From Schizochytrium sp. TIO01 (taxonomy: Eukaryota; Protista; Bigyra: Labyrinthulomycetes), in NCBI GenBank assembly GCA_004764695.1, contig SMSO01000005.1, positions 434,001 to 498,000 of the forward strand: 64,000 nucleotides of DNA. The letters run 5' to 3'. The notes under the pieces were generated by a model. It searched no databases. It saw nothing but the letters and a program-made list of their open reading frames with translations, and had not been told where the DNA came from. A program made the translations under genes and the position numbers. This document shows, in pieces, positions 21,872-40,089 of this stretch; the first letter of the stretch is position 1, and every line of letters begins with the position of its first letter.

Positions 21872-24577
21872 ATGTCACACCATGAGTCTGTCCAGGTTGC
21901 TATTCGCGTGCGGCCTATGATTGGCCGTGAGCAACTTCGTGGTGGGGGTAAGAATCGGAGCCGTAGTGTGGTGTCTGTGGAAGAGCAAACAGCAACGGTG
22001 CAGGTATGTAACTCAGATTTGGCTCAATCGGAAGCATCTCTGTTAGATTCTGAGCGTGCGGAAGATATTAATCAGCACCAAAGCCAAACTACATTCCAGC
22101 GCAAGCATCGGTTCAAAGAGCGAAATCTGAGCTGTGCATATGATAAAGTCTTTGGTCCTTTAGCTACCCAGGAGGATGTGTATTTCGCAACGGTTGCTTC
22201 TTCTGTCCGCTCTGTTGTTGAAGGTATCAACTGCACAGTGTTTGCCTATGGGCAAACTGGTACGGGGAAAACATTTACAATTCTGGGCGAGGGCCCCGAA
22301 GTCCAACGTGCATTGCCAGGTGCTGAACAATCAAATGGAGGTAGTGCTGATATCGCAAAAAGAGGTATCATTCCTCGCGCAGTCAATCAGCTTTTTGATA
22401 TTCTTGAAGAAAAGCGTGAAGAGGACGCTCCCGATGGCCCTGAGCAAGAAGAAGAAGAGGAGCATGGCAAGCTTATTTCAAGTACTGTGTATTGTTCATA
22501 TTTGCAAATCTATAATGAGCATTTATATGATTTGTTGCAAGACCAGAAGCGCCAATTTCCGCTCAAGATCAGATACACTAAGAAGAAGCAAACATATGTT
22601 CAGGGTCTCTCTGAGATCCGAGTCTCTGGGCTTACCGATATTTTAGAGGTTCTTCAGCGTGGCGCCAGGAATCGCGCAATTCGGGCAACAGCATATAACC
22701 AAGCAAGTAGTCGCAGTCATGCAATTCTTCAGCTTCGAGTGGAAACTGAAGAACAGATTGGGGGAATCTCAGAGTCTCGCGTTCTCCGCTCTGCTAAGCT
22801 TAATTTTGTTGACCTTGCGGGCTCTGAGAAGTGGGAAAACGAACAGCAAATGTCTGAAAAGCATCTCAAAGAGATGGCGCGCATCAACAAAAGTTTGTCC
22901 CACCTTGGAAATGTTGTACAAGCTTTGGGTGAAAAGAACCGCCCTCATGTTCCATATCGTGATTCTCAGCTCACAAGACTCTTGCAGGATAGTCTTGGAG
23001 GAAATACACGTACTACTATTATTTGCACTCTTTCACCTGCTGCAGACTGCATCGAAGAAACTGTATCTACCCTTCAGTTTGCAGACCGTGCTAAGCAGGT
23101 TATGGTTCACGTAAAAGCTAATGAAGTGGTAGACGATTCTATTCTCCTAGCTCGAGCGCAAGCAGAAATTGCAAGGCTACGACGTCTCCTTCGAGAGCAA
23201 ACAGAAGCAACCGACGGTCCGATGGGTGAAATGAGGCAAGAAAATATACGCCTGCAGCGATTGGTCGACTCACTTCGTCTTGAAAATGCTGATTTACGTG
23301 CGCAAATTGCAGCATTTGCTTCTTCAGGCATATTCAAGAATCAAGAAAATGAGATTGAGTCTCATCACGAGATGAAGTCTTCTCAGGAAAACAAAGAACT
23401 TAAATATGACTCTAGTAATGTTGAGGAACACACACTTGTGGAACCTGAGCATAGTAGCCCACGAGACCTCAATCCACAGAAGAGCGAGCACAAACAAGAC
23501 AAAACAGCAAATCCTCACGAAGATGCAGAATCTCTTGAAGCAAATGTAGGACTTCATTCCAGAGGTGGAGACCAACTGAGTTTCCAGCCTGCGCCAAGTG
23601 ACATCACACGTGCTCTTAAGGACGACCTCGAAGAAAATGCGATCCTTGACGATGAGGATGATGATGAAAATAACTATGGATCTGATGGTGAAGATGTTTG
23701 CGAGGCTGGCGACAATGTCATGGAAGATAATAAGTCTCATGCATCAGAAATAAAAACCAAAGGTGATCATGTAGTCACACATGCTGAAGAGTATGCAGCC
23801 GTTCATGAGCAGGAAGCAAAGGCAGATCTTCACGCCCGAGAGCTCCGTAAACTTGCTGCGGAAGAAGCAAAAGCTAGGGACGAAATGCAACAGGAAATAC
23901 AACAACTAGAAGATATTCAGCGTGAGAGGCGCAAATTAGAAGAGGCCATGCGTCTTTTGCGCACGCGCGCACCTAAAAAGCGCGCAAAGAAGACCAACAC
24001 ACCCAAGAAAGCTTCAACATTGAAGCCAACTCCGCCTCAGGAAAAACTCAACTTCAGTGGACAAGATATTGGGCGCTCATTAAGCTTGTACCAATGCCGA
24101 GTTGACGCATGGTACGAAGTCACAGTTGTAGGGTTTGATGGCAAATCTGGAATGCATTTGGTAAAATACGAGGACGATGGGACAAAACAATGGCATCAAA
24201 TGGAAGGACGTAAATACACGTTTTTGAACTCTACTTCAACCATTCCAGGAGGTTCTATTCAGAAAGACCCTATGCTACGACTCAGTAGAAGTCAAGGGTC
24301 AAAGAAGCCACGAAAGAAAAGTGCTGTGAACCGTGGCCGAATTGCAGGAAAAGTAGCCGCCGTCCGTTCTGTGTACGGATCTTCTAGTGCTCCTAGCAGC
24401 TCATCTGGCGTCAATCATGTAGGTGACCATTCACCAGTGATGAATGCTCAAATGCGAAAGTCCATTCATCAAGAGATTGTACACGATGCAGAAGAGAGCC
24501 GGGTTGAAGGACCAGAGGATTCTGATATCCTTGCATCCTTACAGCAAGAAGGATTGGGATACACAAATCAAGAATAG
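21872..24577 (+). CDS. Kinesin motor protein with coiled coil and C-terminal Tudor-like domain
   Basis: VQVAIRVRP, P-loop AYGQTGTGKT, switch I NQASSRSH, switch II DLAGSE and HVPYRDSQLTRLLQDSLGG. C-terminal IGRSLSLY...WYEVTVVGFD...HLVKYEDDG is Tudor-like. Confidence 0.96.
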   Translation: MSHHESVQVAIRVRPMIGREQLRGGGKNRSRSVVSVEEQTATVQVCNSDLAQSEASLLDSERAEDINQHQSQTTFQRKHRFKERNLSCAYDKVFGPLATQEDVYFATVASSVRSVVEGINCTVFAYGQTGTGKTFTILGEGPEVQRALPGAEQSNGGSADIAKRGIIPRAVNQLFDILEEKREEDAPDGPEQEEEEEHGKLISSTVYCSYLQIYNEHLYDLLQDQKRQFPLKIRYTKKKQTYVQGLSEIRVSGLTDILEVLQRGARNRAIRATAYNQASSRSHAILQLRVETEEQIGGISESRVLRSAKLNFVDLAGSEKWENEQQMSEKHLKEMARINKSLSHLGNVVQALGEKNRPHVPYRDSQLTRLLQDSLGGNTRTTIICTLSPAADCIEETVSTLQFADRAKQVMVHVKANEVVDDSILLARAQAEIARLRRLLREQTEATDGPMGEMRQENIRLQRLVDSLRLENADLRAQIAAFASSGIFKNQENEIESHHEMKSSQENKELKYDSSNVEEHTLVEPEHSSPRDLNPQKSEHKQDKTANPHEDAESLEANVGLHSRGGDQLSFQPAPSDITRALKDDLEENAILDDEDDDENNYGSDGEDVCEAGDNVMEDNKSHASEIKTKGDHVVTHAEEYAAVHEQEAKADLHARELRKLAAEEAKARDEMQQEIQQLEDIQRERRKLEEAMRLLRTRAPKKRAKKTNTPKKASTLKPTPPQEKLNFSGQDIGRSLSLYQCRVDAWYEVTVVGFDGKSGMHLVKYEDDGTKQWHQMEGRKYTFLNSTSTIPGGSIQKDPMLRLSRSQGSKKPRKKSAVNRGRIAGKVAAVRSVYGSSSAPSSSSGVNHVGDHSPVMNAQMRKSIHQEIVHDAEESRVEGPEDSDILASLQQEGLGYTNQE

Positions 24578-25497
24578 ATATGCAATCGAACCTTTGCAAA
24601 TATCTTCTCCTGATCTACAGGAATCCTTAAGATGCGTTGTGAAGTCCCTCTGTTGACATACTTTCCGAGTATATATTTTTAACTGATATACTGTTAAAGT
24701 TTTGATGAATGTACAGATTTAGTTTTCCGGGAATAGTTTCAATTAAGAAAAAACGACAACGCTGTCCACAATCTTAGCAATCACACATATAACTTTCTGA
24801 AGCAAATTGATGAAGTGAAGATTCAGAATTCCTCGAAAATCTGATTTTTATTTTTATTTTTGTCTAATATTTTAAAACACTCTGGGTAGCTAACCTGAGG
24901 TACCTACGTAGTATGTTGATTGAAAAAGAAAAACAAACATAGAATTAGAAGAGCGCACATGGCCATCGATGTAATTACGAAGAATTCGAATTAAATCATG
25001 AATGTCCCTACCCATATCTTAGTTGGGCGCATTTGTTTACGAAGGGACACACTAACCACAGATGCATCACAAAAGATCCCCGTGCCATTCTCCGCAACGT
25101 ATGGATTAAAGGTGTGAATGAGCAGACCTGGGAGATTTAGTCTCAACCTCGACCGACCAAACACGTTCCAGGAAAAGCAAATAGGCGGAGGATGTATCAA
25201 TATTTCCAGGATCGATATTCGTGACACGATCATCACTGAAGTTATGCCACACCTGAGTTCGCACATGTCGAGCATTGGCTATGTAATAGCCACCAGACAC
25301 AAAGTCCATGTGGTTAACCATGCCAAAGAGTTCATACTCGGGGAGCTCGGCGGCGAGACCCTTGTGGCAATACGGGGATATGCCCAAAGTGCTTTCCGGA
25401 GGAAGCTGAAGCCTCGTCTGAAGTTTTTCTGCTGCAGTGGAGAAACCTGTGCAAATCGCTTCAAATCAAAACCACAAGCATATCCGTAATACGAAAC
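23093..25497. repeat. Left copy of a diverged direct segmental duplication (kinesin 3' part + intergenic + USP 3' end)
   Basis: 23093-23180 aligns by eye to 35568-35655, and 24651-25497 aligns to 35663-36468. Shared blocks include gttaaagttttgatgaatgtacag, aacatagaattagaagagc and atcaatatttccaggatcgatattcgtgacacgatcatc. Confidence 0.92.
25106..25497 (-). pseudogene. USP (peptidase C19) 3' remnant, paralog of 36077..38164
   Basis: Near-identical C-terminus (RHVRTQVWHNF.DDRVTNIDPGNIDTSSAYLLFLERV) but 5'-truncated. It is frameshifted in an A-run (~25425), and the catalytic His box GGHYTA has become GGYYIA. Confidence 0.92.
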
Positions 25498-25547
25498 ATG
25501 AGAGTCAAAGCAGGCCGGGAAAGAAGAGAAAAGAAATCACACCAACA

Positions 25548-26669
25548 TCACCTGGCATAAACGACATTGCCGCGAACAGAAAATATCTGTCCAGAAAGGC
25601 TACATTGCATCGCCGCTGAGATCTCATCCTGTGCCTTCTGCGGAATTTCACCATACCTAGTAGAATCAGTAAACAAACTGACCAGACGAAGCTTCGAGTT
25701 CTCATGCTTCAACGCAGCCACAATACGCTCATAATCAGCTTCATCAGAATTGATAAGAAACAACGAAACGACACTATGAAGGAACTCAGAAGAAGCCGCT
25801 GTGCTCCCCAGAGTAGTTGCCTCAAGGATCTTGAGACATGCAAAACCCGAACTCTCCACGAAGAAACGATCCACGCCCATACTCTCGGCATCTAGGACCT
25901 TGATCTTCCGCAAGCTCTGCGGATTCTTCTTCTCCAGAAGACCATCAAAAAAGCTCCTCGCAGCAAAATGCTCCCTTATCGCATGACGATCAATAATCAA
26001 CTGGCTACTAATCGAAACCTCCCACGCATTACTGAGAGATGCACCAAATCGTATCATGGCGTCCTTTAAGTCATTCAGATCATTGCTGGTTGCTTGGAAA
26101 CCAGCGTACTCCCAAATCTCGCCAATAAAAAGCTCACTGAAGCAAAAACCTTCCGGATCAGAGAGTATATTGATAAGAGACTTATATGTTGGCAGAACAT
26201 CAAAAGAATATGACTTTGCATTGAGAAGAGCATTGCTTCCATTAGACAGAACGCAACAAACAGCAGAGTAAAGGTTTTCGAGCAACAAGTAAAAACGGAC
26301 GTCACGAAAACTACCTGAACCATTAATAATGTTTAAAGCAGACTTAACGCGTTCTGTATTGAATCGGAACTTTACATGCAGTAAGTCTGGGTCTATATCA
26401 TCGGGGAAAGCTTTGAGGAAAGTCCCCATACCAGGTTTAAACTGGTCCACATTATCAAGTTCGAGATAGATCGGGCGACCATCCATGCCATCCATAACAG
26501 GGAACTTAGTGCTCTTGAAAGTAGCAATAGGGTAGCTACAATCGATAGTGTATCGGTGGCTTAATGAATCAGTCTCGAGTGTGAACGGAGCTGAAGAGCT
26601 TTTACGCTCCGCCCCTTCGAATTGGCGTGAACCTGATAGACGTCGAAGCATATTTGCAAGAAAAGACAT
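25548..26669 (-). CDS. Hypothetical protein (373 aa); may end at 25505 through a frameshift near 25608
   Basis: Long ATG-initiated ORF with globular composition and no motif I recognise. The adjacent frame continues NVAFLDRYFLFAAMSFMPGDVGVISFLF, which reads like a natural C-terminus. Confidence 0.6.
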   Translation of the reverse strand: MSFLANMLRRLSGSRQFEGAERKSSSAPFTLETDSLSHRYTIDCSYPIATFKSTKFPVMDGMDGRPIYLELDNVDQFKPGMGTFLKAFPDDIDPDLLHVKFRFNTERVKSALNIINGSGSFRDVRFYLLLENLYSAVCCVLSNGSNALLNAKSYSFDVLPTYKSLINILSDPEGFCFSELFIGEIWEYAGFQATSNDLNDLKDAMIRFGASLSNAWEVSISSQLIIDRHAIREHFAARSFFDGLLEKKNPQSLRKIKVLDAESMGVDRFFVESSGFACLKILEATTLGSTAASSEFLHSVVSLFLINSDEADYERIVAALKHENSKLRLVSLFTDSTRYGEIPQKAQDEISAAMQCSLSGQIFSVRGNVVYAR

Positions 26670-27470
26670 TGCAATAACACAACGAACGAGAGAACAATAG
26701 GTGTTTTACTCTCTACAGGCAATCTCCCCACGAAGCTTGAAGCTGCTTGGTAACAAATGTTCGAAGAATTAGGCACAGCGAGTTAGGTTTTTGTTTTCTC
26801 GAAAGTTTGCTATAGTGTAGTCATGGGGGTGTAGGTACTGGTTTTATACTTAGTCATAATGATGCGAGGAAAGGAATACCCCCTTGTGGATGAAGAGGAG
26901 AGAAAGACGTGCATAAGATCGCACAGACCAGCTACGGGCTGGATCTTCTTCACTTGCAAATGAGCCCTGGACATTTGAAAATGAACTTTCTTCCAAGAAA
27001 ATAGTGTGCACTATATGATGATTATATAAGATTTATTTATATGCTGGCTATCAAGTAAGAAGATCTCGCTCGTTTGTATTGTTTAGTCTCTCACCTCCTC
27101 TCCTTTTCCAGTGAGGGTACGCAAATAAATGTAGAAGAAACTATACACCTAGTTCTTTTTTGTGCCGCAGTTGTCTTTATAAGCCACAATTCCACCTTCC
27201 AAGTCCTTGCCCGCTCCTTAAAATGAACACATTTCATTTCGCTCTTTAATTTTAAAATAAAAATGAAAATTCATTTAGATAGGGAACCTAGTATTTCATT
27301 AATATTGTTATTATTATTGTTATTTGTAACTAGTCCCAGTCATGTTTATTAGCATGAAAACAAATAAAATATATTTTAACTGTCGTCACAGCATAGACAT
27401 ACCCAGTTTTGGTCATTCAACGAAACTATTGAGAGGTCAGTGATTTCCCAATGGCCCGGCATACAGCCTT

Positions 27471-27990
27471 TCATTCTCTTGAAAGCAGGTCTGCCATCAA
27501 GCCAAAAGCATGCATGGTCTCTGGAGAAAGGAATCGATACTGATTCACAAGCCTGGTTAAATCCAGCACATACCTGCTTTGCTCATTGTGATGGTTTTGT
27601 GATGTAAAATTCGCCAGGATCACAAATACTTCGGAGTTTTCAACGTCCTTTTCGAATGATTTTTCAGATGAGCGAATCACGATTTCCTCATATTGGAAAA
27701 TGGGTTTCCAAGTCGTTCTTTACAGCATGGCGGAAGAAGTGGGCAAGTCTGCAAATTTACTGGCAATGATTGTCATCAGGCATCATATTTGCTGTTTGAT
27801 CTTTCAGTGATACAGATGAACTGGTTTCCAGTGGTGTTACGAAATTTAATCGTGAGAAGTCAGTAGCAATAGAGGAGTTGTTTAATTTGACGGATACACC
27901 ACTCCGTCTCAAAATATCCAGACCTTCATTCGTGGGCCCAGCAAACACAATAAAGCCCTCCAACCGCTTCTTTCTCTTCCTACTATCCAT
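27471..27990 (-). pseudogene. Decayed ORF of unknown family
   Basis: Two collinear short ORFs (27757..27990 and 27471..27680) can be joined through one frameshift and one stop (LMTIIASKFADLPTSSAML*RTTWKPIFQYEEIVIRSSEK). Confidence 0.35.
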
Positions 27991-28167
27991 GTATCCTTCG
28001 AAAAAACACTAAGCGCGGTGATTGTTCTCCTCACACGCTCGCCAGAGCAATGATTCTGAATATTTACGGCTCTAGCACTCCATCGGTAGCTTCGTCGCTG
28101 TTCTCTACGCTGTCATTGGGAAACGCATTTTCTCTTTTACCTTTCTTTTTCTTTAATTAAAATAAAC

Positions 28168-29130
28168 TTAATCTTGAGCAGTATAACAGCGTCGTATTTT
28201 AATCTGTGTGATAATGGCTGGATTGTGAAGAATCGTGGAGACATGGACATTCGTACCTTGTTGTAGTCTGCCAGTGTAGAATAGCCTCTTCTTTAGTTTG
28301 AATTTCACGAACTTTTGGCCAAATGAGGCTTGTCCATTGTGGGTGAGTGAAATTTTCACGTGTTTCTGCATCACCAATTGTTTGTGTGCCAAATGGTCAT
28401 CACATTCATTTAAACGAAGCAGGACGGAATGCAATTGCTTATTACCGGGTCTGCTCGCTCGGTTGAGGAGAGGCAAAATCTCCGTTTGTAATATCTGCAC
28501 TGACTTGGCAGATTTTGTAGAAATGTAGACTTAGTACTTCCCGGATGTCTTACGACGATGCAGACTGCTCTATTTCTGTGGTGAAGAGGGCAAGACCCTG
28601 TTTGATACACAAGGCTGTGCTTAGCCTTCTTCTGTTTCGTCTTCATATGTCTTATATGGTGGTCAATCTGATGGTCGTGCTTTGTTTGGCCCTCATGACA
28701 TTCTCTTTGTGATGATGGCTGGCCTTTGTCTTATAGTGTCTGTATAACTTGTTGTGCTGATGGTTTTTCTTGTCGTCGTGGTGCTGCTGTGCTTCTTTGA
28801 GTGCTTCCCTGTAACTTTTTGTTGTTGCTGTTGTTGTTGGCAGTATAGCGATGCTCCTGATAATGCCTCTTCCTGTTCTTGTGATGAAGTGGGGCCGCTT
28901 TTCTAGGTGACCTAACCCTCCTCTTGAGGGTGTGGAGTAGCTAGGCTTACGACAAGGGGTGTGTGTGTTCTCCCGTCCCCATGACTTAACAGCGATGTCG
29001 TTTCTGTAATCGTCTCCGTTAACGTCGAAATCGCCTCAGTCTTCGTCGTGATGGTCTACATTGTGTATGTGGTCCCTACGCAAGGGGCATAGCTGGCCTC
29101 TGTGCGTACCACGGTAGCTCACAAGCGTTA
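28168..29130 (-). pseudogene. Decayed His/Lys-rich gene directly downstream of the primase-helicase
   Basis: Three overlapping open segments can be chained with one stop and two frameshifts: HNVDHHDED*GDFDVNGDDYRND...QQHHDDKKNHQHNKLYRHYKTKASHHHKE, then HDHQIDHHIRHMKTKQKKAKH..., then VQILQTEILPLL...IKIRRCYTAQD. The probable start codon reads ACG (~29128). Confidence 0.45.
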
Positions 29131-29199
29131 AAAGAAAAGGAGCACAACCTAATTTATTGTTCAGGCTTATCTACAATAATCTAATGATGTAATTTTATT

Positions 29200-32100
29200 T
29201 CAGGCAGGATTATGTACGTCCCCACGTCGGAATAGGTTATCGATTTCTCGCTTGCGGAACTCAATCATTTTGTTTATCTCGGTCTCCATGATCCTTTTAC
29301 AATGAGGCGAGATAATTTGGTCGTGGAACCCGATAGGATCCAGTTCTGTTGGGTTGATTGGCAAAAAAGGAGCTTTTACTGCACCCCACAACTTTTGGCG
29401 CTCTTCTACGAAAGTTTTGGCACGGGAGAAAGCAACTTGACCCTTCCGGCGATGCTTGAGAATGTGAGTGCTGTGAATAGACATAAGGGTCCTGGAGCGG
29501 TCGTCGCTAAGTGCATTGCCGCCAACGCTGCTGCTGTTATCGTTGCCTCCCTCAGTTTGACCTCTCTCTTCAAGCAGAGTTGCTGTAGCATCATTGTGTT
29601 GCTCCTCGTCTTCTTCGTTATTTAGATCAACACCATAGGCATAGTCGCCGAAAATGTAGTCGTCGTAGCCGCCTCCCTCTTCGTCTCCGTCTGACTCAGA
29701 GTCTATATCCGCAATCGTGTTGCCGTCTGCTATCGTGTGGTCGTCTGCAATCGTGTTGCCGTCTGCTATCGTGTGGTCGTCTGCAACCGTGTTGCCGTCT
29801 GCTATAGTATAGTCGTCCGCAACCGTGTTGCCATCTGCTATAGTGTGGTTATCTGCGTCGTTGGCTTGCTGAGGCTGGTACATGGGTTCTTCTTGATGTT
29901 GCTTAAGTTGTTCTTCTTTGCTTAGAAGCATGTTCATGAACTCACTGGGGTGCTTGATCTGGTTCCGGATGGCAGTGAGTTTGGCGCGCACCGTCTCCAG
30001 CTGTCGGTCTTGAAGCTTGAGGTCGGTGGCACCCTCAACAAAGACGCGAGCATACATTTTTTCAACCATGAAGCACAGATCATCGTGACCAACACTGGCA
30101 CAGCGGCAGTAAACGGTTACTTCCTTGCGCTTCTCTGCGTCCAGGTAACGGAAGGTATGCCTGGCGATGCACTTTCCAGGATCTCCCTCTTCTTCACAAG
30201 TATGCCCCTGCTGTTGTTGTCCATTCTCCTGCTGCTCTTCACCTCGGTTTCTGCTACGTCGAGAGGTGCGTTCGCTCACGAAATTAATGTCGAAATGGGT
30301 CTCAAAAAACATCTTCAAGATAACGTAAACGTTCTTCCACGTGAAGTCTGTAAATTCGCCGCCTATTCCGATTGGTGGTAATGTGTTCTTCTTCTGAGGA
30401 ATGCTGAAAGCCTTGAGGCGCCGTGCAACGACGTCTTTCAGCCACCGTTGCAAAGCCCTATCTTTGATGAGTCTTTGCGCAGAGAGTGCAATGTGCAGCT
30501 TGAAGGCACTAAAAAAATCTGTCTCAATCATCTGAAAGTCTGCGCCGCAAGCGTAGAGCAGAATCTTCACCCAGTGTTGTTTCTCGAAGTCGGTTGGCAT
30601 TGTCTCCTCGATCATTCGCTGACCCAAATCATTGTAGCTGAGGACCTCCGAGTTGGAATGTGATGCATTGATGACAGTGGCAGTGATGAGGTGTGAGTCC
30701 CGGGCCAGCTGTGCCAGATCCTGCATCCCCAAGAAGAGAATGCGGATGGTATCGTCGATCTTTGCAAAATCTGACATTTTGTTTACATTCAGTTGCGCAA
30801 TGAGTTCTTTGAACACCTTCGGTTCAACACCGGGTTTTATGGCAAAGAAGCGTCGGATTGTGTTATCGTCTACTAACGCCCCCACCTGGCTCTCCTCGAC
30901 CTTCATTCTCTTGTCCATTTGTAACTTTTGCAGCGTATGCTGGTATGCGCGTTTATTCATGACTCCACGAGTAGAAATCTGTGTGACGCAGCGCTTTCGC
31001 TCTTTGCTTTGGATCTCTGTCATCAGAACTCTAAAGTCTATATTATTCCGTACGACGCACTTATCGTCAAAGAGGTACTTCACGTAAGGATCTCTTGCCT
31101 GCTGTAACTTCACCCACTCCATGCGCAGGTTGCCGAATGAGCGATGATTTTCTGCAGCATTGTAAGCCTGAATCTCGAGGAGGTGTTTGTCAATGAGACT
31201 GCGAGAGAAAGAGACAGTATCCTGTTGCGCCATGCCCTCCTGCGCAGATCCCAAAAGATAGGCACGTCGATACATCACCAAATCTACGAGTGCAGCCGCA
31301 GGAGTGACGGGCAGCTCTTCAGTTTTATCTGTGGACGCACTTATGTAAACATGACAGATACCGGATTCAATACGCCGCACTCGGTCTCTCATCTGGTTAA
31401 TGGCTCGCGCACAGCAGGATTTGTTGGTGGCATAGCAGAAGGACACGTGGAAATGTTCTTGCAAAAAGTCGACTCCTGCACCCACGGTGGGGCTGATCAG
31501 CAGCACCTTGGCTTCCTTCCAGGCTTTGTTGCTGTGTTCCATGCGGGCTTTCTCTGTGTTCGTAGATTTCGACGTGATCGTGTGAATTGCACCGTATAGT
31601 TCCTCAATGCGCCTGACATAAGGACTAGCATCCACCTGTGCGGTCACGAAGCCGTTCTCTTCCTGCAGACACCGTCTGTAGCGGTCCATGATCTCTGTCA
31701 GTCGCATGTGCAGCCAGGACTTCAGGCGTTCAATCTGGTTGATAGAATTGGACACGACGAGGCAGTTAAAATTCTCCATGATTGCGCAGCGCAGCAGCTC
31801 ATTTGCCCACTCCCACTCGCCTGCGTATTCGATGAATTTTGTGCGGATGGGAACTCGCCGATTGTAATGGTAGTACAGATTGGGGATCTCCACCTGATCC
31901 ATGGAGGGAGACATCTGCCCCCTTGTCATCCGCAGGAAGCGCTGTTCGCGTGGGCCCAGGTCTGCATCGCTCACAATGAGGATCTTAGCACATTTGATGA
32001 TTTGAAAGAAGATGTTCCAGATGTCGCTCAGCTTGGTTTTGAGTGTGTCTGAGTTTAGGTGGCTCAAAAGGGAGCATATCTCGTCACAAAAGACCACATC

Positions 32101-34098
32101 GTGGCCACAGACGAGTTTAGAAGTTATCTCCTCGTCGTCCGTGACTTCCAGCAGCCGCTCGAGAGAGTCTATCTGCAGTGCGAGCTCACGCACGCCAGCA
32201 AGATTATGCGATTGCTGGTCCTTGTAGAAGCTCAGCCCGAGTCTCTGGCTTGCCTTGCGGGCGAGCATGACCCTAAAGGAGATGGAGAGGATGCGCGGCT
32301 CAGTTCTCCTGGTTCTCAGTCTGTTCAGCAAGTCCTTTACTGCGGTAGTTTTGCCTGTGCCCAAGGACGCGTGCAGAGCATAGGTCATTTTCACGTCTGT
32401 AATGGGTTGGCTGTTGTCTAGGGGTAGGTCATCAATCTCCTCGGGGAGAAGGAGCTTACGTTGGAATCGATCATCGTATTCGATTACATGAGGTGCTATT
32501 TCAGGCGCAAAGTCTCGTAGAGGTGCTACTCCGGGTCTCACTTGATTGCTGTCCTGCTGAATGGGGCTCTTGAAGATGATGCGCTTGCCCTCGCAGCCGC
32601 GTCCGTGACAATAGTAACCGATAGAGAAGTCATTGAACATGTAGATGACGACTTGGTGGTTGCACTGATTGCACCCGAGGTAGCAGAACCTTAGGAAACC
32701 ATCATTGTCTGTTCTCGAGATGCCTTGTATGTATGGCGTCAGCCTTGCTTTGAAGAGCCATGGCGTTGGCGCTGTGTGTACAAATGAGCAGTCTATTTTG
32801 GGGTTACAGAAAGGATGGATCCCTTCCAGGAGGTGCTTTAGCACGAGAAGCCCTACTGAGTAGTAGTCCTCCCAGAAGGCTGGTACATCACAGATATTGG
32901 CTGCGAGTCTCTCACAGATGCCCCGAGAATCCTCAGACATAAGACCCATCAGCGCTTGTAAGGGGACCTCCGATGCACTGCCTGGATCAGCAAGCGCGGT
33001 ACCGATTATGTCATCTACGATGAGTTCGGGATCGTTTGCGACCACCGTTTGTTCAGGTTGTTGTTGTTGTTGCTGCTGCTGCTGCAACATTGACTGCTGT
33101 TGGTTGGACTGGTTGATCTGGGTTTGTAGGTTGAGGTTGGACACGCGGGCAATTATGTTGCGTTTGCGGATGAGTCTGTGCCAGATGCCTCTTGAGGCAA
33201 ACTGTGCAGCTTCTTGGAGTTGATCCTGGGTAAGGGAGATCTGCTGGTACCGCCCGGGGTGTTTGAGGGCATCGTAGAAGGAGATCACAAAGTCTTTAAG
33301 AGGCCTATTCTCTACATTTTCTGCTGGTACGAAAACGCGGGCGCTCTTCCAGGAGAGGCCTTCTTGGAATTTGGAGTTGATTTTACAGCAGCCGATCATG
33401 CGCATCATACGTTGACTGCAATCGTAGGCAGAATAGTCTACCATTGTTTTGCGGTCGTCTATGACGTACCAATCCTTGAACTTTGGGTCGACTTGGGCCT
33501 TTTCGTGCATGAACATGGCCATGAGTGCTGCTGCGGTGTGCGAAATGATGCAGCCATCGAAGTAAGGCCCCTTTGGTGTGCTGAGAATGACGCGTGCAGA
33601 AAATTTGGCGCCGGGTTGACTACTATAGGACACCACGAAATCGGATTGTCTGGCAGTATGTACGTGCAACACGTCTTGAACGAATTCGAGTAAGTATGAG
33701 ATGAACTTTTCTTCGAAGACGCGGGTGATATTTTCCAGCTCGGCGCGTGATTCAGCTCTTGTTATGACGTGTTGCGAGGAGAGATCACGCTCCACGTCAA
33801 CATAGAATTTCTGAGGCGTGTTCTGAAGAAGAAGCTCCTCCATGTGGCGATCCGCAAGTCCAAGTTCACTGTAGAGCCGTGCGAGTTGAGACCAGGTCTT
33901 AATGACTGCGTAAATGCGGGTTGTATCTCCGTTTTTAATGTAGCGGACATTTTCGTAACCCCGAAGGGGGTCTCGCCGCACTGCGAAGCTCGCGTGCTGC
34001 CCCCTTGTAGAACTATCGCCTTCGCGGTTGCCGGTTCTCCGATTATTGTTTTCAGCCGGTTTCCACCTAAGGGAATAATTACAAATGAGAGCTACCAT
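29200..34098 (-). CDS. AEP (PrimPol/UL52-type) primase + Zn finger + UL9-like origin-binding SF2 helicase fusion
   Basis: AEP motif I KFYVDVE (33790-33810), motif II KFSARV (normally SxH) and motif III VDYSAY...RMMRMIGCCK. Zn module RFC...H...YYCHGRGC. Helicase Walker A HASLGTGKTT (~32344-32373), Ia SISFRVMLA, QIDSLERL, II FCDEICS, III SDADL, V SPTVGAGVDF and VI QMRDRVR. AATAAA lies ~40 nt after the stop (29153-29158). Confidence 0.88.
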   Translation of the reverse strand: MVALICNYSLRWKPAENNNRRTGNREGDSSTRGQHASFAVRRDPLRGYENVRYIKNGDTTRIYAVIKTWSQLARLYSELGLADRHMEELLLQNTPQKFYVDVERDLSSQHVITRAESRAELENITRVFEEKFISYLLEFVQDVLHVHTARQSDFVVSYSSQPGAKFSARVILSTPKGPYFDGCIISHTAAALMAMFMHEKAQVDPKFKDWYVIDDRKTMVDYSAYDCSQRMMRMIGCCKINSKFQEGLSWKSARVFVPAENVENRPLKDFVISFYDALKHPGRYQQISLTQDQLQEAAQFASRGIWHRLIRKRNIIARVSNLNLQTQINQSNQQQSMLQQQQQQQQQPEQTVVANDPELIVDDIIGTALADPGSASEVPLQALMGLMSEDSRGICERLAANICDVPAFWEDYYSVGLLVLKHLLEGIHPFCNPKIDCSFVHTAPTPWLFKARLTPYIQGISRTDNDGFLRFCYLGCNQCNHQVVIYMFNDFSIGYYCHGRGCEGKRIIFKSPIQQDSNQVRPGVAPLRDFAPEIAPHVIEYDDRFQRKLLLPEEIDDLPLDNSQPITDVKMTYALHASLGTGKTTAVKDLLNRLRTRRTEPRILSISFRVMLARKASQRLGLSFYKDQQSHNLAGVRELALQIDSLERLLEVTDDEEITSKLVCGHDVVFCDEICSLLSHLNSDTLKTKLSDIWNIFFQIIKCAKILIVSDADLGPREQRFLRMTRGQMSPSMDQVEIPNLYYHYNRRVPIRTKFIEYAGEWEWANELLRCAIMENFNCLVVSNSINQIERLKSWLHMRLTEIMDRYRRCLQEENGFVTAQVDASPYVRRIEELYGAIHTITSKSTNTEKARMEHSNKAWKEAKVLLISPTVGAGVDFLQEHFHVSFCYATNKSCCARAINQMRDRVRRIESGICHVYISASTDKTEELPVTPAAALVDLVMYRRAYLLGSAQEGMAQQDTVSFSRSLIDKHLLEIQAYNAAENHRSFGNLRMEWVKLQQARDPYVKYLFDDKCVVRNNIDFRVLMTEIQSKERKRCVTQISTRGVMNKRAYQHTLQKLQMDKRMKVEESQVGALVDDNTIRRFFAIKPGVEPKVFKELIAQLNVNKMSDFAKIDDTIRILFLGMQDLAQLARDSHLITATVINASHSNSEVLSYNDLGQRMIEETMPTDFEKQHWVKILLYACGADFQMIETDFFSAFKLHIALSAQRLIKDRALQRWLKDVVARRLKAFSIPQKKNTLPPIGIGGEFTDFTWKNVYVILKMFFETHFDINFVSERTSRRSRNRGEEQQENGQQQQGHTCEEEGDPGKCIARHTFRYLDAEKRKEVTVYCRCASVGHDDLCFMVEKMYARVFVEGATDLKLQDRQLETVRAKLTAIRNQIKHPSEFMNMLLSKEEQLKQHQEEPMYQPQQANDADNHTIADGNTVADDYTIADGNTVADDHTIADGNTIADDHTIADGNTIADIDSESDGDEEGGGYDDYIFGDYAYGVDLNNEEDEEQHNDATATLLEERGQTEGGNDNSSSVGGNALSDDRSRTLMSIHSTHILKHRRKGQVAFSRAKTFVEERQKLWGAVKAPFLPINPTELDPIGFHDQIISPHCKRIMETEINKMIEFRKREIDNLFRRGDVHNPA
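29708..29856. repeat. Coding minisatellite: eight 18-bp units alternating A/B (four 36-bp higher-order units)
   Basis: tc(c/t)gcaa(t/c)cgtgttgcc(g/a) alternates with tctgctat(c/a)gt(g/a)t(g/a)gt.., encoding (ADDHTI-ADGNTI/V)x4. Confidence 0.95.
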
Positions 34099-34592
34099 TT
34101 CATTGTTGTTGTTGCCATTATTTTCTGCCAGGGCCTCAGGACGTGAATCCCTCCAGTCCAGGGAGTAGAGGATATTGTGTTTGTGCTCAGGGTGAATAGC
34201 TCACTCCGGCGCTGGCTATCTGAGCTCCAGAAGGAGAGGTCACCACTGCATCGGGAGAACCAATTCAACCCAAAGACATTTGGAGTGAAAGGTTGTGCAG
34301 TGTTGAGAGCGCATTTGTTATTGTAATCCCTCTTCTGACTGCATGCGAGTATGCGATCAATGAAGTAGAAGTTACAATGCAGGCTTACTGCCTTTTCAGG
34401 ACAGACTGCTGATTGATTCACAGGGATCAGTTCGGACGAATCGTCCCTGAAAACAGCCCAGTCACTTGGCCGTTGTAGTTGCTGCTGTTGCAGTTGTTGC
34501 TGTTGCAGTTGCTGCTGTTGCAGTTGCTGCTGTTGCCATTGCTGATCTTGGCGTCGCAATTTATTTTGCTGTGCAAGATGATATGTATTCAT
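34092..34592 (-). CDS. Probable N-terminal part of the primase-helicase gene, separated by a 1-nt frameshift near 34200
   Basis: Starts MNTYHLAQQ. The frame of the long ORF is open upstream of its first ATG (AIHPEHKHNILYSLDWRDSRPE...) up to ~34200. Adding one base at agt-ga[g]-gct joins both into one 1797-aa protein. Confidence 0.6.
   Translation of the reverse strand: MNTYHLAQQNKLRRQDQQWQQQQLQQQQLQQQQLQQQQLQRPSDWAVFRDDSSELIPVNQSAVCPEKAVSLHCNFYFIDRILACSQKRDYNNKCALNTAQPFTPNVFGLNWFSRCSGDLSFWSSDSQRRSELFTLSTNTISSTPWTGGIHVLRPWQKIMATTTMKW
34474..34540. repeat. 15-bp tandem repeat encoding (QQQQL)x4
   Basis: gttgctgctgttgca-type units on the + strand. Confidence 0.9.
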
Positions 34593-34710
34593 CCAGATCT
34601 TCCTCTTCTTCTTTTTTCTTTCTTTCTTCCTTTCTTCGCTGTGAACAACGCCGCACGCTCGGCCCAATTCCGCTATTCCCTGCTCCTGCTGCCGCTCCTG
34701 CCGTCACCCG

Positions 34711-35128
34711 AGTACGCGCGTACTGAAACGTGTTTGTACAAAAGGTAGTAGGCCCTAGATCATATTTAGAATTAAGATTTACTTAAAATTGAACCCATAA
34801 AATTTGCAAAACTTGCATTTCCTATGGTGACAAAGTGGCGCTAAGGCCCAACCGCGAGTTTTTCTCAAAGACAATTCTTTAATCATGTCCTTGAATAAAT
34901 AGCGCAAACGGATGCCTCTAAGGGCGTAGATATATATCACGATCCCCTCCGTGTGTGCATAGATAGAGGTACGTACGTACGGTCAGTGCTGCGTTAGTCG
35001 CGGCTGCCAGAATCAACCGCAGCCATAGGTGCCCTCATCCTCGTCACCTGCGTACATGCGATTACCTCCGGGAAAGCGCTTGAAGGGCACTTGCTGAGGC
35101 GTAAGACTTCTGGTTGAAGTACTTCAAC
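34711..35128. promoter_or_regulatory. Palindrome cluster upstream of the primase-helicase (candidate origin or regulatory region)
   Basis: Perfect palindromes agtacgcgcgtact (34711-34724), gatatatatc (34929-34938), gtacgtacgtac (34969-34980) and gttgaagtacttcaac (35113-35128), plus GC-rich stems at 34988-35092. The function is inferred. Confidence 0.4.
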
Positions 35129-35567
35129 AGTTTGAATTGAAGGTTTGCTTCAGTTGTAGTGTTCGGAGCTTGGCAGTTCCTTGGCCATTCCAATTTCTTA
35201 CCTCACCTCCACTCCTTAACAAAGACCTAAATAATTACTATATATTATCTAGAGGGAATAATCAGTTCATGAGACAATTGTCCCAAAAGTTCTAATTCTT
35301 CCTTTAAAAATAAAATAAAAAATTGCGATTCTAAAAATAATACTAGTTAGGTAGCTAACCAAATACTACTTTAGTGTGAAATTGTGAAGGTCAAGATAAA
35401 CACCATTTGAGAAGAGTGAAGAACACTAGACTCAAGTTTAACAAAATGGATCACCAGCTGTACAGCAGGATACTTAGCAAGAAAGCATTGCACCTTAAAG
35501 CAGATGCAGATGCTCAGAATCGCGAAGGGGAAGGGCAGGGGTGGTCTCGCTAAATCATTTCGGAACC

Positions 35568-35655
35568 AAGCAGTTCATGTTTCACGTAAACGATGATGAG
35601 GTAGTAGACAACTCTACTCTCCTAGCTGGCGCGCAAGCAGAGACAGCTCGGCTGA
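35568..35655 (+). pseudogene. Kinesin remnant (neck region), paralog of 21872..24577
   Basis: KQFMFHVNDDEVVDNSTLLAGAQAETARL versus KQVMVHVKANEVVDDSILLARAQAEIARL. It is then joined directly to sequence matching the kinesin 3' flank, implying a ~1.5 kb deletion. Confidence 0.88.
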
Positions 35656-36468
35656 GTCTATTTGTTGACATATGTTCAGGTATATGGGTATATGCTCGAA
35701 CTGATATGATGTTAAAGTTTTGATGAATGTACAGGTTTAATTTTCTGAGAATAGTTTCAACAACGACAAGTTGGATTTCAGCTAAAACTTCAACAATCAC
35801 AGATGCGTTTTTCTGAAGCGACTTTAATGAAGTGACGATTTAGATTCCTTAGAATTCTAGATTTTTAAGTATAACGAAAAAAATATATTAGCTGAAAATA
35901 AGAACGAACATAGAATTAGAAGAGCACACATGACCATCGATGCAATCTCGAAGAATTCGAATTGAAACATGAACACCCATACGCATACCTTAGATAGACG
36001 CATTTGTTTACAAAGGAGGCACGAGGTGCATCACAAAGGGTCCCCATGCCTTTCTCCGTAACGTGATCTAGATGGATTAAAGATGTGAGTGTGCAGTCCT
36101 GGGAGATTTAGTCTCAACCTCAACCGGCCGAACACGTTCCAGAAACAGCAAATAGGCGGAGGACGTATCAATATTTCCAGGATCGATATTCGTGACACGA
36201 TCATCATTGAAGTTATGCCACACCTGAGTTCGCACATGTCGAGCATTTGCTGTGTAATGGCCACCAGACAAAGAGCCCATATGGTTAACCATGCCAAAGA
36301 GTTTATATTCGGGACGCTCGGCGGCGAGACCCTTGTGGCAATACGGGGATATGTCCAAAGTGCTTTCCAAAGGAAGTTGAACCCTCGTCTGAAGTTTTTT
36401 CCGCTGCAGTGGAGAAACCTGCGCAAATCGCTTCAAATGAATCACAAGCACATCCGGAGCACGAAATA
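35568..36468. repeat. Right copy of the direct segmental duplication
   Basis: Collinear with 23093-23180 plus 24651-25497. Confidence 0.92.
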
Positions 36469-38164
36469 TCTCCAGTCTTCGCGTCGAGGGCTGATGAGAG
36501 GTGCACTTACGACAGTAACAAGCGTTATCCCCGTCTAGAGTCTCCTCTTCGACCATCTTTTGCAGGCACTCTTCTAGGCCTACTCGCCCAGATTCTGGGG
36601 AGGCAATTGGAACTGAGAGATCGAGAACTGGATCGAAAGCACGACTTTGATTACCACACGTTTTGCAAGTTACCAATGAGTACAGCTGCCCAGCAAATAC
36701 ATCTTTTACATGGGAGTCGTTACGTTTTTCATAATGAGACCACCAACGCTGAGCAGTGTCTTCTACAGACTCATTGTCAATATCAACGATTTCTTCGTAA
36801 GGGACCTTTTCTCGAATGCGGTTCACATCTTCGTGAACAGCATCCAAGAGACATCGGAGAAGCTCCTGTGCGTCGTGCTGTTCATAACCTTCAAAGTAAC
36901 TTGCAACTGCACCCATGACCTTTTTAATCTTACTCGGGCGAATTGCTTGTAGGCTATCCTGAGTCCACATTGCGTTAACAAGTTTACCATATGTCTCTGC
37001 CATTGCTCCTTTAGCACTGATATTGTCTCGGTTGAGATCTTTCATATGTTTGTTTTCAAGAAAGTATTCAGCAAGTGGGCCACACTGGCCTAAGCACTGA
37101 AGGCATGCATTCATGTAGCACGTATTTCCTAGGTTACGTAGCCCCCTCTTACCATTCGAAAAAAGTGTAAAGTCAAGTTTGCTGTGCAGATGAAGTTGTT
37201 TGTCCAAGGCACGTGCTAGTTCTGTGTCAGTGTCTAGGTCCATGCGTGACTTTTTTGCATTACAGTTCTGGGGGGACAGGTGAACAGGGTTCCGCTTTTG
37301 CGAGCTGTTTGGCCTGGCTTCCGGGGAGCCGAGAGTAATAGGTGGCAGCGTTTGATGTTTATCTTCGCTTGACTTGTTGTGTCCTGCAAGAGAGGCTGCT
37401 GGAATTTGGATTCCTTTTTTTGCAACATTTTCTTCTTCATCGTCGTCAGATTTGGATTCTTCGTAATCCTCCTTGTGTATACCAGCTTCATCTGCTTCTT
37501 CGAGATTATTCGAACTTCTTCTGTGCCATTCGACAGAGTCTTTTTTGAGTCCCTGGTATTCTTTCTCTTGTTCGTGGTACTGCTGTTGCTGTTGCTGTTG
37601 CTGCACACGATCCGCACGACTTACGCGCTGCCCGGGACGGCTATCCTGCTCTGATAGAGGACGCTCGATAGGGGAAGTTGGTGACAAAAGGTTTCCACTA
37701 TCTGGTACCACTGCAGGAAGCGAGATTGGCGAAAAAGGTCCAATTGAACGCGGCGTTGTAGTCGACCCAGTGCCCACTGACGTCATTAAAATGCTGGAAG
37801 GCGATGCTGGCATTTCTTGATGGCCCAAAGAAGGTTTGGGTTGTGCTAAATACGATTGACTTACGTCTTCTGAATCTAGCGGGACATTATTAGACTCAGG
37901 GTTGTTGTGCGCAGGATCGGTGCGATCCAAGGAGGCCAGTCGAGCCCCAGCAGGTGGCATGTGCGATAGAACAAAGATCAACAAGTATACACCAAAGACT
38001 CCGAGACGCAAGTTGTCTTGCCACCACTCCTCTGTCGGCCTTCCGTGCAAAAGGGTTCGTGCTTCGTCCGATAAAGTGAGATGCGTTTGAAGCAGCTTCG
38101 TAATAGGATGCTCTAAGTACTCCGGCGAAAGAATCCCAAGAACTGGGTCCTGCTTATGGTTCAT
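36077..38164 (-). CDS. Ubiquitin-specific protease (C19; USP2/8/21-like)
   Basis: Cys box GLRNLGNTCYMNACLQCL, QHDAQE, two CxxC pairs, VIHLKRF, His box HMGSLSGGHYTA, WHNFNDD and AYLLF. Confidence 0.96.
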   Translation of the reverse strand: MNHKQDPVLGILSPEYLEHPITKLLQTHLTLSDEARTLLHGRPTEEWWQDNLRLGVFGVYLLIFVLSHMPPAGARLASLDRTDPAHNNPESNNVPLDSEDVSQSYLAQPKPSLGHQEMPASPSSILMTSVGTGSTTTPRSIGPFSPISLPAVVPDSGNLLSPTSPIERPLSEQDSRPGQRVSRADRVQQQQQQQQYHEQEKEYQGLKKDSVEWHRRSSNNLEEADEAGIHKEDYEESKSDDDEEENVAKKGIQIPAASLAGHNKSSEDKHQTLPPITLGSPEARPNSSQKRNPVHLSPQNCNAKKSRMDLDTDTELARALDKQLHLHSKLDFTLFSNGKRGLRNLGNTCYMNACLQCLGQCGPLAEYFLENKHMKDLNRDNISAKGAMAETYGKLVNAMWTQDSLQAIRPSKIKKVMGAVASYFEGYEQHDAQELLRCLLDAVHEDVNRIREKVPYEEIVDIDNESVEDTAQRWWSHYEKRNDSHVKDVFAGQLYSLVTCKTCGNQSRAFDPVLDLSVPIASPESGRVGLEECLQKMVEEETLDGDNACYCRKCTSHQPSTRRLEIFRAPDVLVIHLKRFAQVSPLQRKKLQTRVQLPLESTLDISPYCHKGLAAERPEYKLFGMVNHMGSLSGGHYTANARHVRTQVWHNFNDDRVTNIDPGNIDTSSAYLLFLERVRPVEVETKSPRTAHSHL

Positions 38165-40089
38165 GAAGTCTTTCCACTACTTCGCTGCTCTTTGGACACC
38201 GCAATTGTGTTGTTATTGAGACAAAGAGCCAAGCGAGAAGACGACCAAGGTGGCTAGCCCAATTGGGTTTGGTCAATAGTTCTCTTTAACGGAAGTTCTC
38301 GTTTCGTAGCCCTCAGGAGCTGCGAACCCTTCAGTAGAAAGCCTGCGAAAGATCCAGATGCCTGATCTCGAACGCTCTCCAAACGAGACTTGCCAGCCAA
38401 AGAAGCACTGGGGCCCTGCACTATCTGCACCTGAATCCTTCGCCAATAATCTTCCAGTTTTTCAAGGTTTGCCGAGTTTCAATCGCTCGCTTTCAGGTTT
38501 GCAAGCTCGCTGCAGAAGCTTCGTTCAAGCGCAGAGAACTTCTGTTCTCTTACCTAGCACCGTGGTCGCCCTAAACAAGTTTGCTAGGGTTTATGATATA
38601 TGTCCTATAACTATACCTCCTAGCTGTCTAGCTAGCCACTGAGCTATGAACCTTCACTCTCCTCCCTCGCTCGTTCTTTCCACGAATTCCCTGCCCACGG
38701 CCGCTGTCGCTCTCCTCTGCCAGCTCGCTCAAAGTTGGCTGCTGCTGTCTCCCTCGCTATAGGGCAGAGTTCTCCAAGTCACTGCCTTCGCTAGAGCTTG
38801 CCGTCTCCAACTTCAAGATGATCTCTTTGAAATATGCGCTCCCACAGATCACTCGATCGTTTCACTCACAATTATTCTGTCTTCACTTCAACTCGACTCG
38901 CCTGCGCGCCGCTAGGCCAAGGCCTTGCGCGATCTGCAGCAGCAAGCGGGCTGTGCACTGCTGGGAATGGTTCTCTTGAGCGGCCTGCGATGGTGGCGAG
39001 GCGCCCAACAAAGCCGAACTGGAGTCGGGACTTGCCGCGTGCGAGGAGGCTCGCTGGTTAGGGCGAACTGGACTAACTGGACTCGGCTCCGCGCTAGGTA
39101 CACAAGTCACGGGGACACTTCGGGGACCCAGATCAGGTCCCGCGGGACCCTGGCCACGCTCTGAACGCCATAGCAGCTGTTCGCAGGGATCGATCGTACC
39201 CTGATCAGAGATTGAGAAATAGCGTCAGTGCGGCTGAGAATGTGTGTATCTTGTTCATACGCGAAAGGGCTTTGGGCAGGCATCTGTGGTCATGTCATGT
39301 CGATCTTCTAACTATTTTCTTTTTCTTTTCTTCTTAATTATAAAAACAGAAAAGAAAAAAGAGAAATAAGACTTATAGTATTGTCATTTAGGGATTAGAT
39401 AAGACCTGTCTATTCATATATAGGGCTCTCTCTCTCTTGTTTTATTCAAATAAATAAATAAATAAATTGAATCTGTGAGAGAGAGGCTAGGCAGGTATCA
39501 TTCTCTGCCTCTAACATAAAATTCGCAAGTGCAACACGAGAGAAGCGTTTGTGTTTAGAGGTTTTTAGTTGGCACCTGCAGGAATAAGACCAGACAGTTT
39601 GGTTGAGAGAAAAACTGTAATGGGGAGAAAGGCAGAACTAAGATACTGTTAACGGTAAAGGAAAAAGTTACCTGGAAGGGACTGGAAATTCAACACGTAC
39701 ATGTTGCTGAAGAAGCCGACAAGACCGTTGTGGCCTGCTAATTTGCACACACGCGCTTCCTGACTAGTAAGGCAACAATAATGTGCTAACGACCATGCGA
39801 CAATTGAGCCGGACTATTCCACAGGAGACAAGTTGTATCTGCTCCATAGTTCTGAAGAAATTAAAAACCAAAACGAGAAAACTGCTTTAACAGTTCAGTT
39901 CTCCTATATATTTCCAAGGTGATTGAACAATATAGCAAGCGAGAGTTCAACTGCACAGAAAAAAAAAATGAGACCGTGTACAGTTGTTCAATTTATGTTA
40001 TTGCTAGATTTAAAACGCGACACGCATGACATATCGTAATAGCTAGCAGCTGAACTTGACATTAAGAGGCAAATCATTTCCGGAACATT

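Follow-up and report, generated by a model that had tools for sequence, protein, structure and literature searches.

A cargo of about 10 kb lying between two diverged copies of a host gene junction was analysed in a 64,000-nucleotide stretch of Schizochytrium sp. TIO01 DNA (contig SMSO01000005.1, positions 434,001 to 498,000; hereafter the window, in whose numbering positions are given). The junction is that of a kinesin gene and a gene for a ubiquitin-specific protease (USP). The cargo holds two adjacent viral genes, a packaging ATPase gene of the A32 type that has decayed and a 5.4-kb primase-helicase gene that is still open and in which conserved residues have changed, and the same sequence was found across independent sequencing runs. 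The insert is an endogenous giant-virus fragment, a kind already known in protists. Our favoured reading, to which we give a probability of about 0.5, is that a nucleocytovirus fragment was captured in a duplication produced by break repair, that the packaging gene has decayed, and that the frame of the helicase gene was kept by selection.

Viral origin of two genes in the cargo

The first-pass annotation, made from the letters of the window, had placed a replication gene in the cargo, and this was upheld by homologues, by a family profile and by the predicted fold, with the start of the gene corrected to about 34592. Near 34188 the frame of this gene is shifted by one base in the window. All four independent runs compared carry an extra base within 33093-34527 (listed at 34188 in three of them and, for run X3, inferred from the length of the record), and the frameshift of the window is private or an assembly error. 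The eight closest homologues are full-length proteins that share 41-45% identity with it across 99% of the region searched and lie on contigs of up to 220 kb. All eight matched Pfam Herpes_ori_bp; the window protein alone gave no Pfam match at E ≤ 0.01. The family profile matched UL9 of herpes simplex virus 1 (HSV-1; 1e-21) and human PrimPol (8e-6). When the structure of residues 1-967, counted from the Met at 34101, was modelled (mean predicted local distance difference test, pLDDT, 79), the model ranked the origin-binding protein of HSV-1 first in PDB, with PrimPol among the top Foldseek matches and origin-binding proteins of nucleocytoplasmic large DNA viruses (NCLDV) first among viral models. 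The protein is an archaeo-eukaryotic primase (AEP) domain fused to a UL9-type helicase of superfamily 2 (SF2).

Among the catalytic motifs, the following are kept: AEP motifs I (DxD/E) and III (hD) as FYVDVER and MVDY, Walker A GxGK as GTGKT, and the DE of Walker B. Three of the 35 positions that are invariant in 51 homologues have changed, each by one base. These are His170 of AEP motif II, now Arg (33592-33594), Met580 just before Walker A, now Leu (32362-32364), and Gly906 of SF2 motif VI (QxxGRxR), now Asp (31384-31386), the Gly being shared by HSV UL9 as well. The base behind the motif II Arg was also present in run X16, which had 0 differences over 33093-34527, and that behind the motif VI Asp in run X3.

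The protein was placed in a single-gene FastTree phylogeny of 52 sequences and 1,100 amino acids, midpoint-rooted, with fragments and weaker matches left out. It was sister to the eight closest homologues (support 1.00). As the sole query it matched no viral contig. A query built from the homologue alignment found one locus, on IMGVR_UViG_3300020185_000043, whose protein is 96% identical to clade member P0006, one of the eight closest homologues. This contig is 18% complete and encodes an NCLDV capsid (Pfam). Latimer names it as carrying skiavirus gene hits (bioRxiv 10.64898/2026.07.28.741200), and the window protein is sister to the clade of this contig, which is not accepted as a bona fide member. 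Herpes_ori_bp and A32 are among the 17 skiavirus core genes given in the same preprint (bioRxiv 10.64898/2026.07.28.741200), and genes of both types are present in the cargo, A32 as a remnant.

The A32 protein of the related contig matched the window at 28589-28413 with an E value of 7e-9 when 321 viral open reading frames (ORFs) were searched, and the score of 100 compared with a shuffle maximum of 45. A frameshift-aware alignment carried the match to 28173, with 42 identities in 138 positions and two frameshifts in 417 bp; the downstream part alone scored 48, the best of 25 shuffles reaching 36. In ESM Atlas the piece lay near Pox_A32 clusters (0.93; family assigned on 29% of members), and it had no Pfam match. 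The other ORFs of the contig, including that for the major capsid protein (MCP), did not match the window, where neither the MCP nor the VLTF3 marker was found. The search for further skiavirus contigs through A32 or MCP returned only IMGVR_UViG_3300020185_000043 and one 21% match.

Codon use of the helicase gene correlated with that of the viral orthologue (r = 0.62) and hardly with the host pool (r = 0.09), and its GC content at third codon positions was 0.59. By depth the gene is single-copy. Both the helicase gene and A32 are almost certainly of viral origin. A mirusvirus donor was considered and rejected: A32 is a packaging gene of Varidnaviria, and the related contig encodes an NCLDV capsid. 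The comparisons place the donor near Skiavirales/'Ariadnavirales', as a relative of the described families.

Two side observations concern these genes. The helicase part of the 29203-34101 protein matches the NCBIfam model CyRepA1, a cyanobacterial plasmid replication protein, at 8e-38, which is below the family cut-off; the match may explain the plasmid-like look of the replication gene. In IMGVR_UViG_3300020185_000043 the A32 gene (4844-6803) consists of 8 exons separated by 7 introns of spliceosomal type (GT..CTAAC/CTGAC..AG), with micro-exons of 7, 11 and 12 nt and a probable eighth intron upstream, and once spliced it gives an open frame with a typical A32 sequence. Within its intron at 5536-6092 is an antisense ORF of 176 amino acids with Cys pairs (5531-6061, minus strand) and a weak DUF7685 match, which resembles a passenger of the homing-nuclease type. 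Across the whole contig the intron pattern was not more frequent than in shuffles (10 against 6-21), and such introns may be limited to a few of its genes. Yutin et al. state that they detected no intron invasion in 'Ariadnavirales' (bioRxiv 10.64898/2026.08.29.747986).

The duplicated kinesin/USP unit

Self-comparison of the window revealed three colinear blocks shared by a left and a right copy of the unit (Table 1). Along the window the layout is an intact kinesin gene, a 3' remnant of USP, the cargo, an 86-bp kinesin piece and an intact USP gene with a complete UCH domain. This order, and the coordinates that the first-pass annotation had given around its cargo of about 10 kb, were confirmed by self-comparison, Pfam and alignment to the closest named kinesin, from Hondaea fermentalgiana (62% identity, full length, 1-901 against 1-932). 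Equally well founded was its description of a duplicated unit of at least 2.4 kb that includes intergenic DNA and whose copies have diverged: the unit measures 2.4 kb on the left, and the copies differ by 9-24%, depending on the segment. About 1.46 kb, the counterpart of 23179-24642, is missing from the right copy, which leaves only 86 bp of kinesin there, and this loss came after the duplication.

Global alignment of the copies gave 18 differences in 86 positions of the kinesin piece, 49 in 204 of the distal intergenic DNA, 29 in 175 of the USP 3' flank and 36 in 392 of the coding part of USP. For the final 107 codons of USP the synonymous distance (dS) was 0.19 and the non-synonymous distance (dN) 0.066, and the left remnant has two indels in 394 bp. 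Strains differ by only about 0.1-0.3% (run X11, for example, showed 6 differences over 4.7 kb and 11 over 4.4 kb). The duplication is thus old, because its copies differ far more than strains do. Beyond the ends of the unit no homology exceeded the shuffle level, and there was no sign that the original duplication had been larger.

The annotation had also described a reciprocal loss of genes, which was not confirmed and is not needed. The pattern of whole and cut genes on the left, cut and whole on the right, arises because the ends of a direct duplication fall inside two convergent genes, and the truncation of both follows from the positions of those ends. Any such direct duplication gives this pattern, and circle integration is therefore not diagnosed by the geometry, which would fit a tandem duplication or an insertion with target duplication as well.

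The locus in independent sequencing runs

Of the words sampled from 29200-38200, 20 of the 24 listed runs, from 10 studies, contained at least half; one of the 20 may be the window's own source. Contigs and depth over 20500-40400 were compared in four runs (X3, X6, X11 and X16). Short-read contigs bridged the left junction of the cargo (25353-29740 in X6 and X11, 25353-28339 in X3) and also the right one (from 34957, 34960 or 35266 to 36194), and the depth of the cargo was close to that of its flanks in X3, X6 and X11. The contigs break at 25223-25353 and 36194-36324, inside perfect matches of 38-42 bp between the copies. Among the joints listed in the four runs none restored an empty site, the contigs being unable to phase the shared stretch. 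These data make it nearly certain that the cargo is chromosomal; an empty chromosome with a separate circle is unlikely.

Three joints were rejected as repeat-derived: 21343 to 34792 (X3 and X6), which skips the cargo and has one side of 24 letters that ends in a dispersed repeat, and, likewise, 37448 to 25924 and 22464 to 24228. One-base indels relative to the window were found at 20772, 21095, 34188 and 35418, where three or four of the four independent runs disagree with it, which suggests assembly errors. Strains also vary in length, with a 38-base insert at 34959 (X6, X16, X13 and X18), a 24-base insert at 35265 (X13 and X20) and 8-base deletions at 27897 and 35679. In X18 and X20, runs from two studies that we guessed to be RNA, the USP contigs end at 35862 among the ends listed, where X13 continues, and contigs cover the 5' end of the helicase gene. 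No run labelled as RNA was listed among those with the locus; with the run type of X18 and X20 a guess, this pattern is a weak hint of expression.

Retention of the helicase frame

At a distance of 0.066, the minimum neutral distance of the USP remnant, about 12 stops and about 22 frameshifts would be expected in the helicase gene, and none was seen. At distances of 0.05-0.07, at most one in 400 simulated copies stayed free of stops (0-1/400). The probability that both frameshifts fell in A32 by chance was 0.005, and the best joint probability for recent neutral decay was 0.0006-0.008, depending on the indel rate assumed. An unbroken frame combined with three changes at invariant sites therefore speaks for selection acting on the frame while catalysis is relaxed or altered. 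We lean towards retention of the frame by selection; judged from the three conserved residues that have changed, the helicase is now probably impaired in catalysis.

Entry of the viral DNA

A heptamer identical to the first seven bases of the unit begins 8 bases past the end of the left copy, and six of its bases also open the right copy at 35568. The probability of such a match by chance was 0.0014 on a strict count and 0.016 on a loose one. The repeat is a hint that the viral DNA was captured while the repair that produced the duplication was under way, and it would fit foreign DNA taken in at the duplication joint, whether through a template switch or together with a short duplication of the target. 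That the insertion lies so near the joint suggests one coupled event. Adjacent duplications are described as common where DNA has integrated at random in transgenic animals (PMC12111812).

In the favoured reading, repair of a break would have re-copied the 2.4-kb kinesin/USP segment by repair synthesis, and nucleocytovirus DNA would have been taken in at the joint, leaving the repeat of 6-7 bp, with neither an integrase nor a homologous crossover. Capture without a homologous crossover is, as a separate point, quite probable. The viral DNA would be about as old as the duplication; a similar age is suggested by A32, which has decayed about as far as the USP remnant has (two frameshifts in 417 bp, two indels in 394 bp). 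The packaging gene would have decayed and the helicase frame stayed open, held under selection by the host for most of the time and now perhaps relaxed. The dispersed repeat, and perhaps an orphan ORF, would be host-derived parts of the mosaic.

Several observations count against this reading, and some of them suit an account in two steps, which has a modest chance of being correct. In that account an old tandem duplication was followed by the arrival of viral DNA at or near the joint, with a target duplication of 6-7 bp, and the helicase gene, either young or refreshed through recombination with a viral episome that persisted, is an ordinary relic in decay. The heptamer can be read as the target-site duplication. 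The virus-like codon use of the helicase gene is unameliorated and fits a recent arrival too, and the branch of the window protein in the tree is of ordinary length, not longer than those of its viral sisters. Polymorphism looks neutral today: 8 of 9 strain differences in the helicase gene are non-synonymous, compared with 5 of 10 in its neighbours (p = 0.14; 19 differences classed, from 40 of 105 and 40 of 91 rows). For Acanthamoeba, viral insertions have been characterised as chimeric and transient, with host repeats colonising them (PMC12210455). As to impairment, two other homologues also deviate at two to three invariant columns, and the motif II His is naturally Arg or Lys in DR0530-like AEPs (PMC5862659), so that its change need not mean a loss of activity. 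The heptamer was noticed post hoc and in eroded junctions, A32 might have been dead before entry, and in run X16, of low depth, the cargo stood at 7-10 and its flanks at 5-6. The ancestral, empty arrangement of kinesin and USP is a reconstruction, no empty site having been found in relatives: two scans of metagenome contigs, with the kinesin tail and USP as queries, turned up no orthologous locus. CAK9034970.1, which is encoded on a 212-kb contig and is the protein of the D. trenchii-associated skiavirus already described, belongs to another clade and is only 26% identical, and the donor is therefore a lineage separate from that virus.

Against the two-step account, the adjoining viral A32 is as decayed as the USP remnant, three changes at invariant sites without a stop or frameshift in 5.4 kb have a joint probability of at most 0.008 under neutrality, and a later, independent insertion would need to hit within about 10 bp of the joint.

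The mechanism proposed in the first-pass annotation, that a circular viral episome acquired the kinesin/USP junction and then returned to the chromosome through one homologous crossover, is improbable. It would produce the direct duplication of the target on both sides, and skiavirus genomes in cultures are described as mapping as circles, encoding a YqaJ recombinase and exchanging genes with the host nucleus. Such a geometry does not diagnose it, however, and the model needs two events, capture and crossover, and afterwards a genome of 200 kb would have had to lose about 95% of its length. The junction heptamer suits insertion at a duplication joint better. In the related viral contig, 18% complete, there is no kinesin or USP sequence and no host junction, and the preprint text consulted describes no skiavirus integrant (the string 'integrat' occurs 0 times in one and once, non-committally, in the other). 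The duplication flanking the cargo does not demonstrate integrase-free entry of a circle. It stands that part of the cargo comes from an extrachromosomal replicon, this part being nucleocytovirus DNA; capture of the junction and a single crossover have nothing behind them beyond that geometry. The annotation was mostly right in its observation, proposed a mechanism that the observation does not diagnose, and missed the A32 remnant, the real content being more specific than it had seen.

A transposon-like unit moved by the dispersed repeat, with ends near 27090 and 34781-35240 and the primase-helicase as its enzyme or a passenger, is very improbable. The repeat is multicopy with internally deleted variants, and its 16-bp motif occurs at 27090 and 35202, on either side of the viral genes. 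However, depth shows a single copy of the helicase gene, neither the 41 cargo frames nor the long ORFs gave a transposase, HUH or integrase domain, there are no convincing terminal inverted or long direct repeats, and the similarity of the putative ends scored 40 against a shuffle maximum of 38. An assembly artefact, either a mis-join of two haplotypes or a circle that in fact lies apart from an empty chromosome, is scarcely credible, since the contigs do break in the shared perfect matches without phasing across them but both junctions are bridged in independent runs, depth is similar to that of the flanks in three of four, strains are far closer to each other than the copies are, and the viral A32 is dead.

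Other features of the locus

The host DNA around the cargo is gene-dense and eukaryotic, with TMEM131, kinesin, USP, PhyH, C2 and leucine-rich repeat (LRR) genes identified by Pfam, and the host organism is a thraustochytrid. Coordinates of all features are collected in Table 1.

Table 1. Features of the duplicated unit and its cargo (window positions)
Feature	Position	Strand	Evidence or remark
Block 1 of the unit	23093-23178 and 35568-35653		79% identity
Block 2 of the unit	24681-24850 and 35699-35867		73% identity
Block 3 of the unit	24924-25499 and 35895-36469		86% identity, E 5e-177
Host kinesin, intact, 901 aa	21872..24577	+	Pfam Kinesin 1e-104
Left copy: kinesin 3' part, intergenic DNA, USP 3' end	23093..25499		Self-comparison
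USP 3' remnant, frameshifted near 25430	25106..25499	-	dS 0.19, dN 0.066 against intact USP
Junction heptamer	25508..25514	+	Identical to first 7 bases of the unit (23093-23099)
Orphan ORF, 373 aa	25548..26669	-	Host-like codon use (correlation with the host pool, r = 0.57)
Remnant of a viral packaging ATPase gene of the A32 type, with 2 frameshifts, a changed Walker A and no recognisable Walker B	28173..28589	-	tblastn
Virus-derived AEP primase + UL9-type SF2 helicase gene, ~1,797 aa	29200..34592	-	Open in independent runs
In-frame 18-bp tandem repeat, 3' part of helicase gene	29672..29869		Absent from the 8 closest homologues
Dispersed repeat, many diverged genome copies	34781..35240		Depth, loose ends
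Right copy: 86-bp kinesin piece, 1.46-kb deletion, intergenic DNA, USP 3' end	35568..36469		Self-comparison
Host USP, catalytic domain intact	36077..38176	-	Pfam UCH 2e-69

The homologue search with the orphan ORF returned only itself, and none was found in IMGVR_UViG_3300020185_000043. Its nearest named ESM Atlas clusters were LRR/F-box (0.83-0.85), a lead that it is possibly LRR-like, and the predicted fold was unusable (pLDDT 40). The ORF stops 49 bases short of the USP remnant, which has the same orientation, and the duplicated 3' end of USP may supply the end of its transcript.

Over 34444-35771 the summed depth was three to seven times background, with many loose ends and joints from internal deletions, and the dispersed repeat was very deep in the runs guessed to be RNA. 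It had no terminal repeats and no Rfam match, and its motif gave 0 matches in the viral contigs; the two copies of the 16-bp motif in the window flank both viral genes. The cargo yielded neither a capsid gene nor an integrase, a transposase or a terminal repeat. The 41 cargo frames gave only one weak low-complexity match to Pfam, the spacers gave nothing against sequence L001 by tblastx, and the four Rfam matches obtained in the search for structured RNA were all far below the cut-off. The cargo is a mosaic relic rather than a replicon, made up of a dead packaging gene and an open viral one together with a host-like orphan and a host repeat.

Possible function

A dominant-negative derivative of HSV-1 UL9 blocks viral replication (PMC3185506), titles on UL9 transdominance stand in the reference list of PMC13458718, and motif VI contacts ATP (PMC12543377). 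By analogy, the thraustochytrid might have domesticated a skiavirus-like primase-helicase that now acts as a dominant-negative inhibitor of viral DNA replication, a proposal that we regard as improbable. The likeness is that an impaired origin-binding helicase can block its own virus (PMC3185506), and the predicted fold of the window protein ranks HSV-1 UL9 first in PDB. The HSV-1 derivatives, in contrast, are engineered truncations, and activity, expression, origin binding and the C-terminal DNA-binding domain of UL9 would be ascribed to the window protein by analogy.

If this proposal were true, the gene would be an inherited antiviral defence built from a giant-virus replication initiator, in a chromosomal integrant of a group described as episomal or lytic. 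In the cargo the chromosome keeps a fixed record that a viral lineage near Skiavirales/'Ariadnavirales', which were proposed only in 2026 preprints, once infected the host. With one 5.4-kb viral gene open beside a dead one, co-option of a giant-virus replication gene becomes testable in a cultured protist, and this could bear on why some thraustochytrids carry these viruses quietly and others are lysed by them.

Comparison with known systems

Campbell-type integration by a single crossover leaves an insert between direct copies of its target, in which genes are truncated at the 5' or the 3' end. The cargo locus differs in that divergence between its copies reaches 9-24%, and capture associated with a duplication produces this geometry as well.

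The mirusvirus AurliV-2 (LE-Chr15) of Aurantiochytrium is also large-DNA-virus sequence in a thraustochytrid chromosome flanked by duplicated host sequence (PMC12606086; 10.1101/2023.06.15.545109). AurliV-2, however, is a whole 269-kb Duplodnaviria genome between subtelomeric sets of ribosomal DNA and repeats, whereas the window has about 6 kb of Varidnaviria DNA, as indicated by A32, in a gene-dense region. The degraded NCLDV insertions of Acanthamoeba resemble it in being partial chunks of giant virus with pseudogenes, host repeats and local duplications (PMC12210455). As described there, those insertions are transient and mostly strain-specific; this one is common to the runs of 10 studies and has a 5.4-kb frame open beside a dead gene.

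A further comparison is with SmDNAV and the skiaviruses ('Ariadnavirales', or 'Skiavirales'). The AEP-SF2 fusion of SmDNAV is described with intact AEP motifs, and mimivirus R8 and pF1055L of African swine fever virus are named as relatives (bioRxiv 10.64898/2026.08.29.747986, 10.64898/2026.07.28.741200). Skiaviruses are presented as circular-mapping episomes of thraustochytrids that exchange genes with host nuclei (bioRxiv 10.64898/2026.07.28.741200), while homologues 'either integrated or co-sequenced' are referred to by Yutin et al. (bioRxiv 10.64898/2026.08.29.747986). In the literature searched and the main text consulted of these preprints, no integrant of skiavirus type and no retained primase-helicase is reported. 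The window gene shares with these viruses the fusion of an AEP domain, at the N-terminus, to an SF2 helicase of UL9 type, a thraustochytrid host and an adjoining A32 core gene. Unlike theirs, it lies inside host DNA between eukaryotic genes and has changed the motif II His, the Met before Walker A and the motif VI Gly; and, at 26% identity to the D. trenchii-associated protein, it is nearer to an environmental clade (41-45%).

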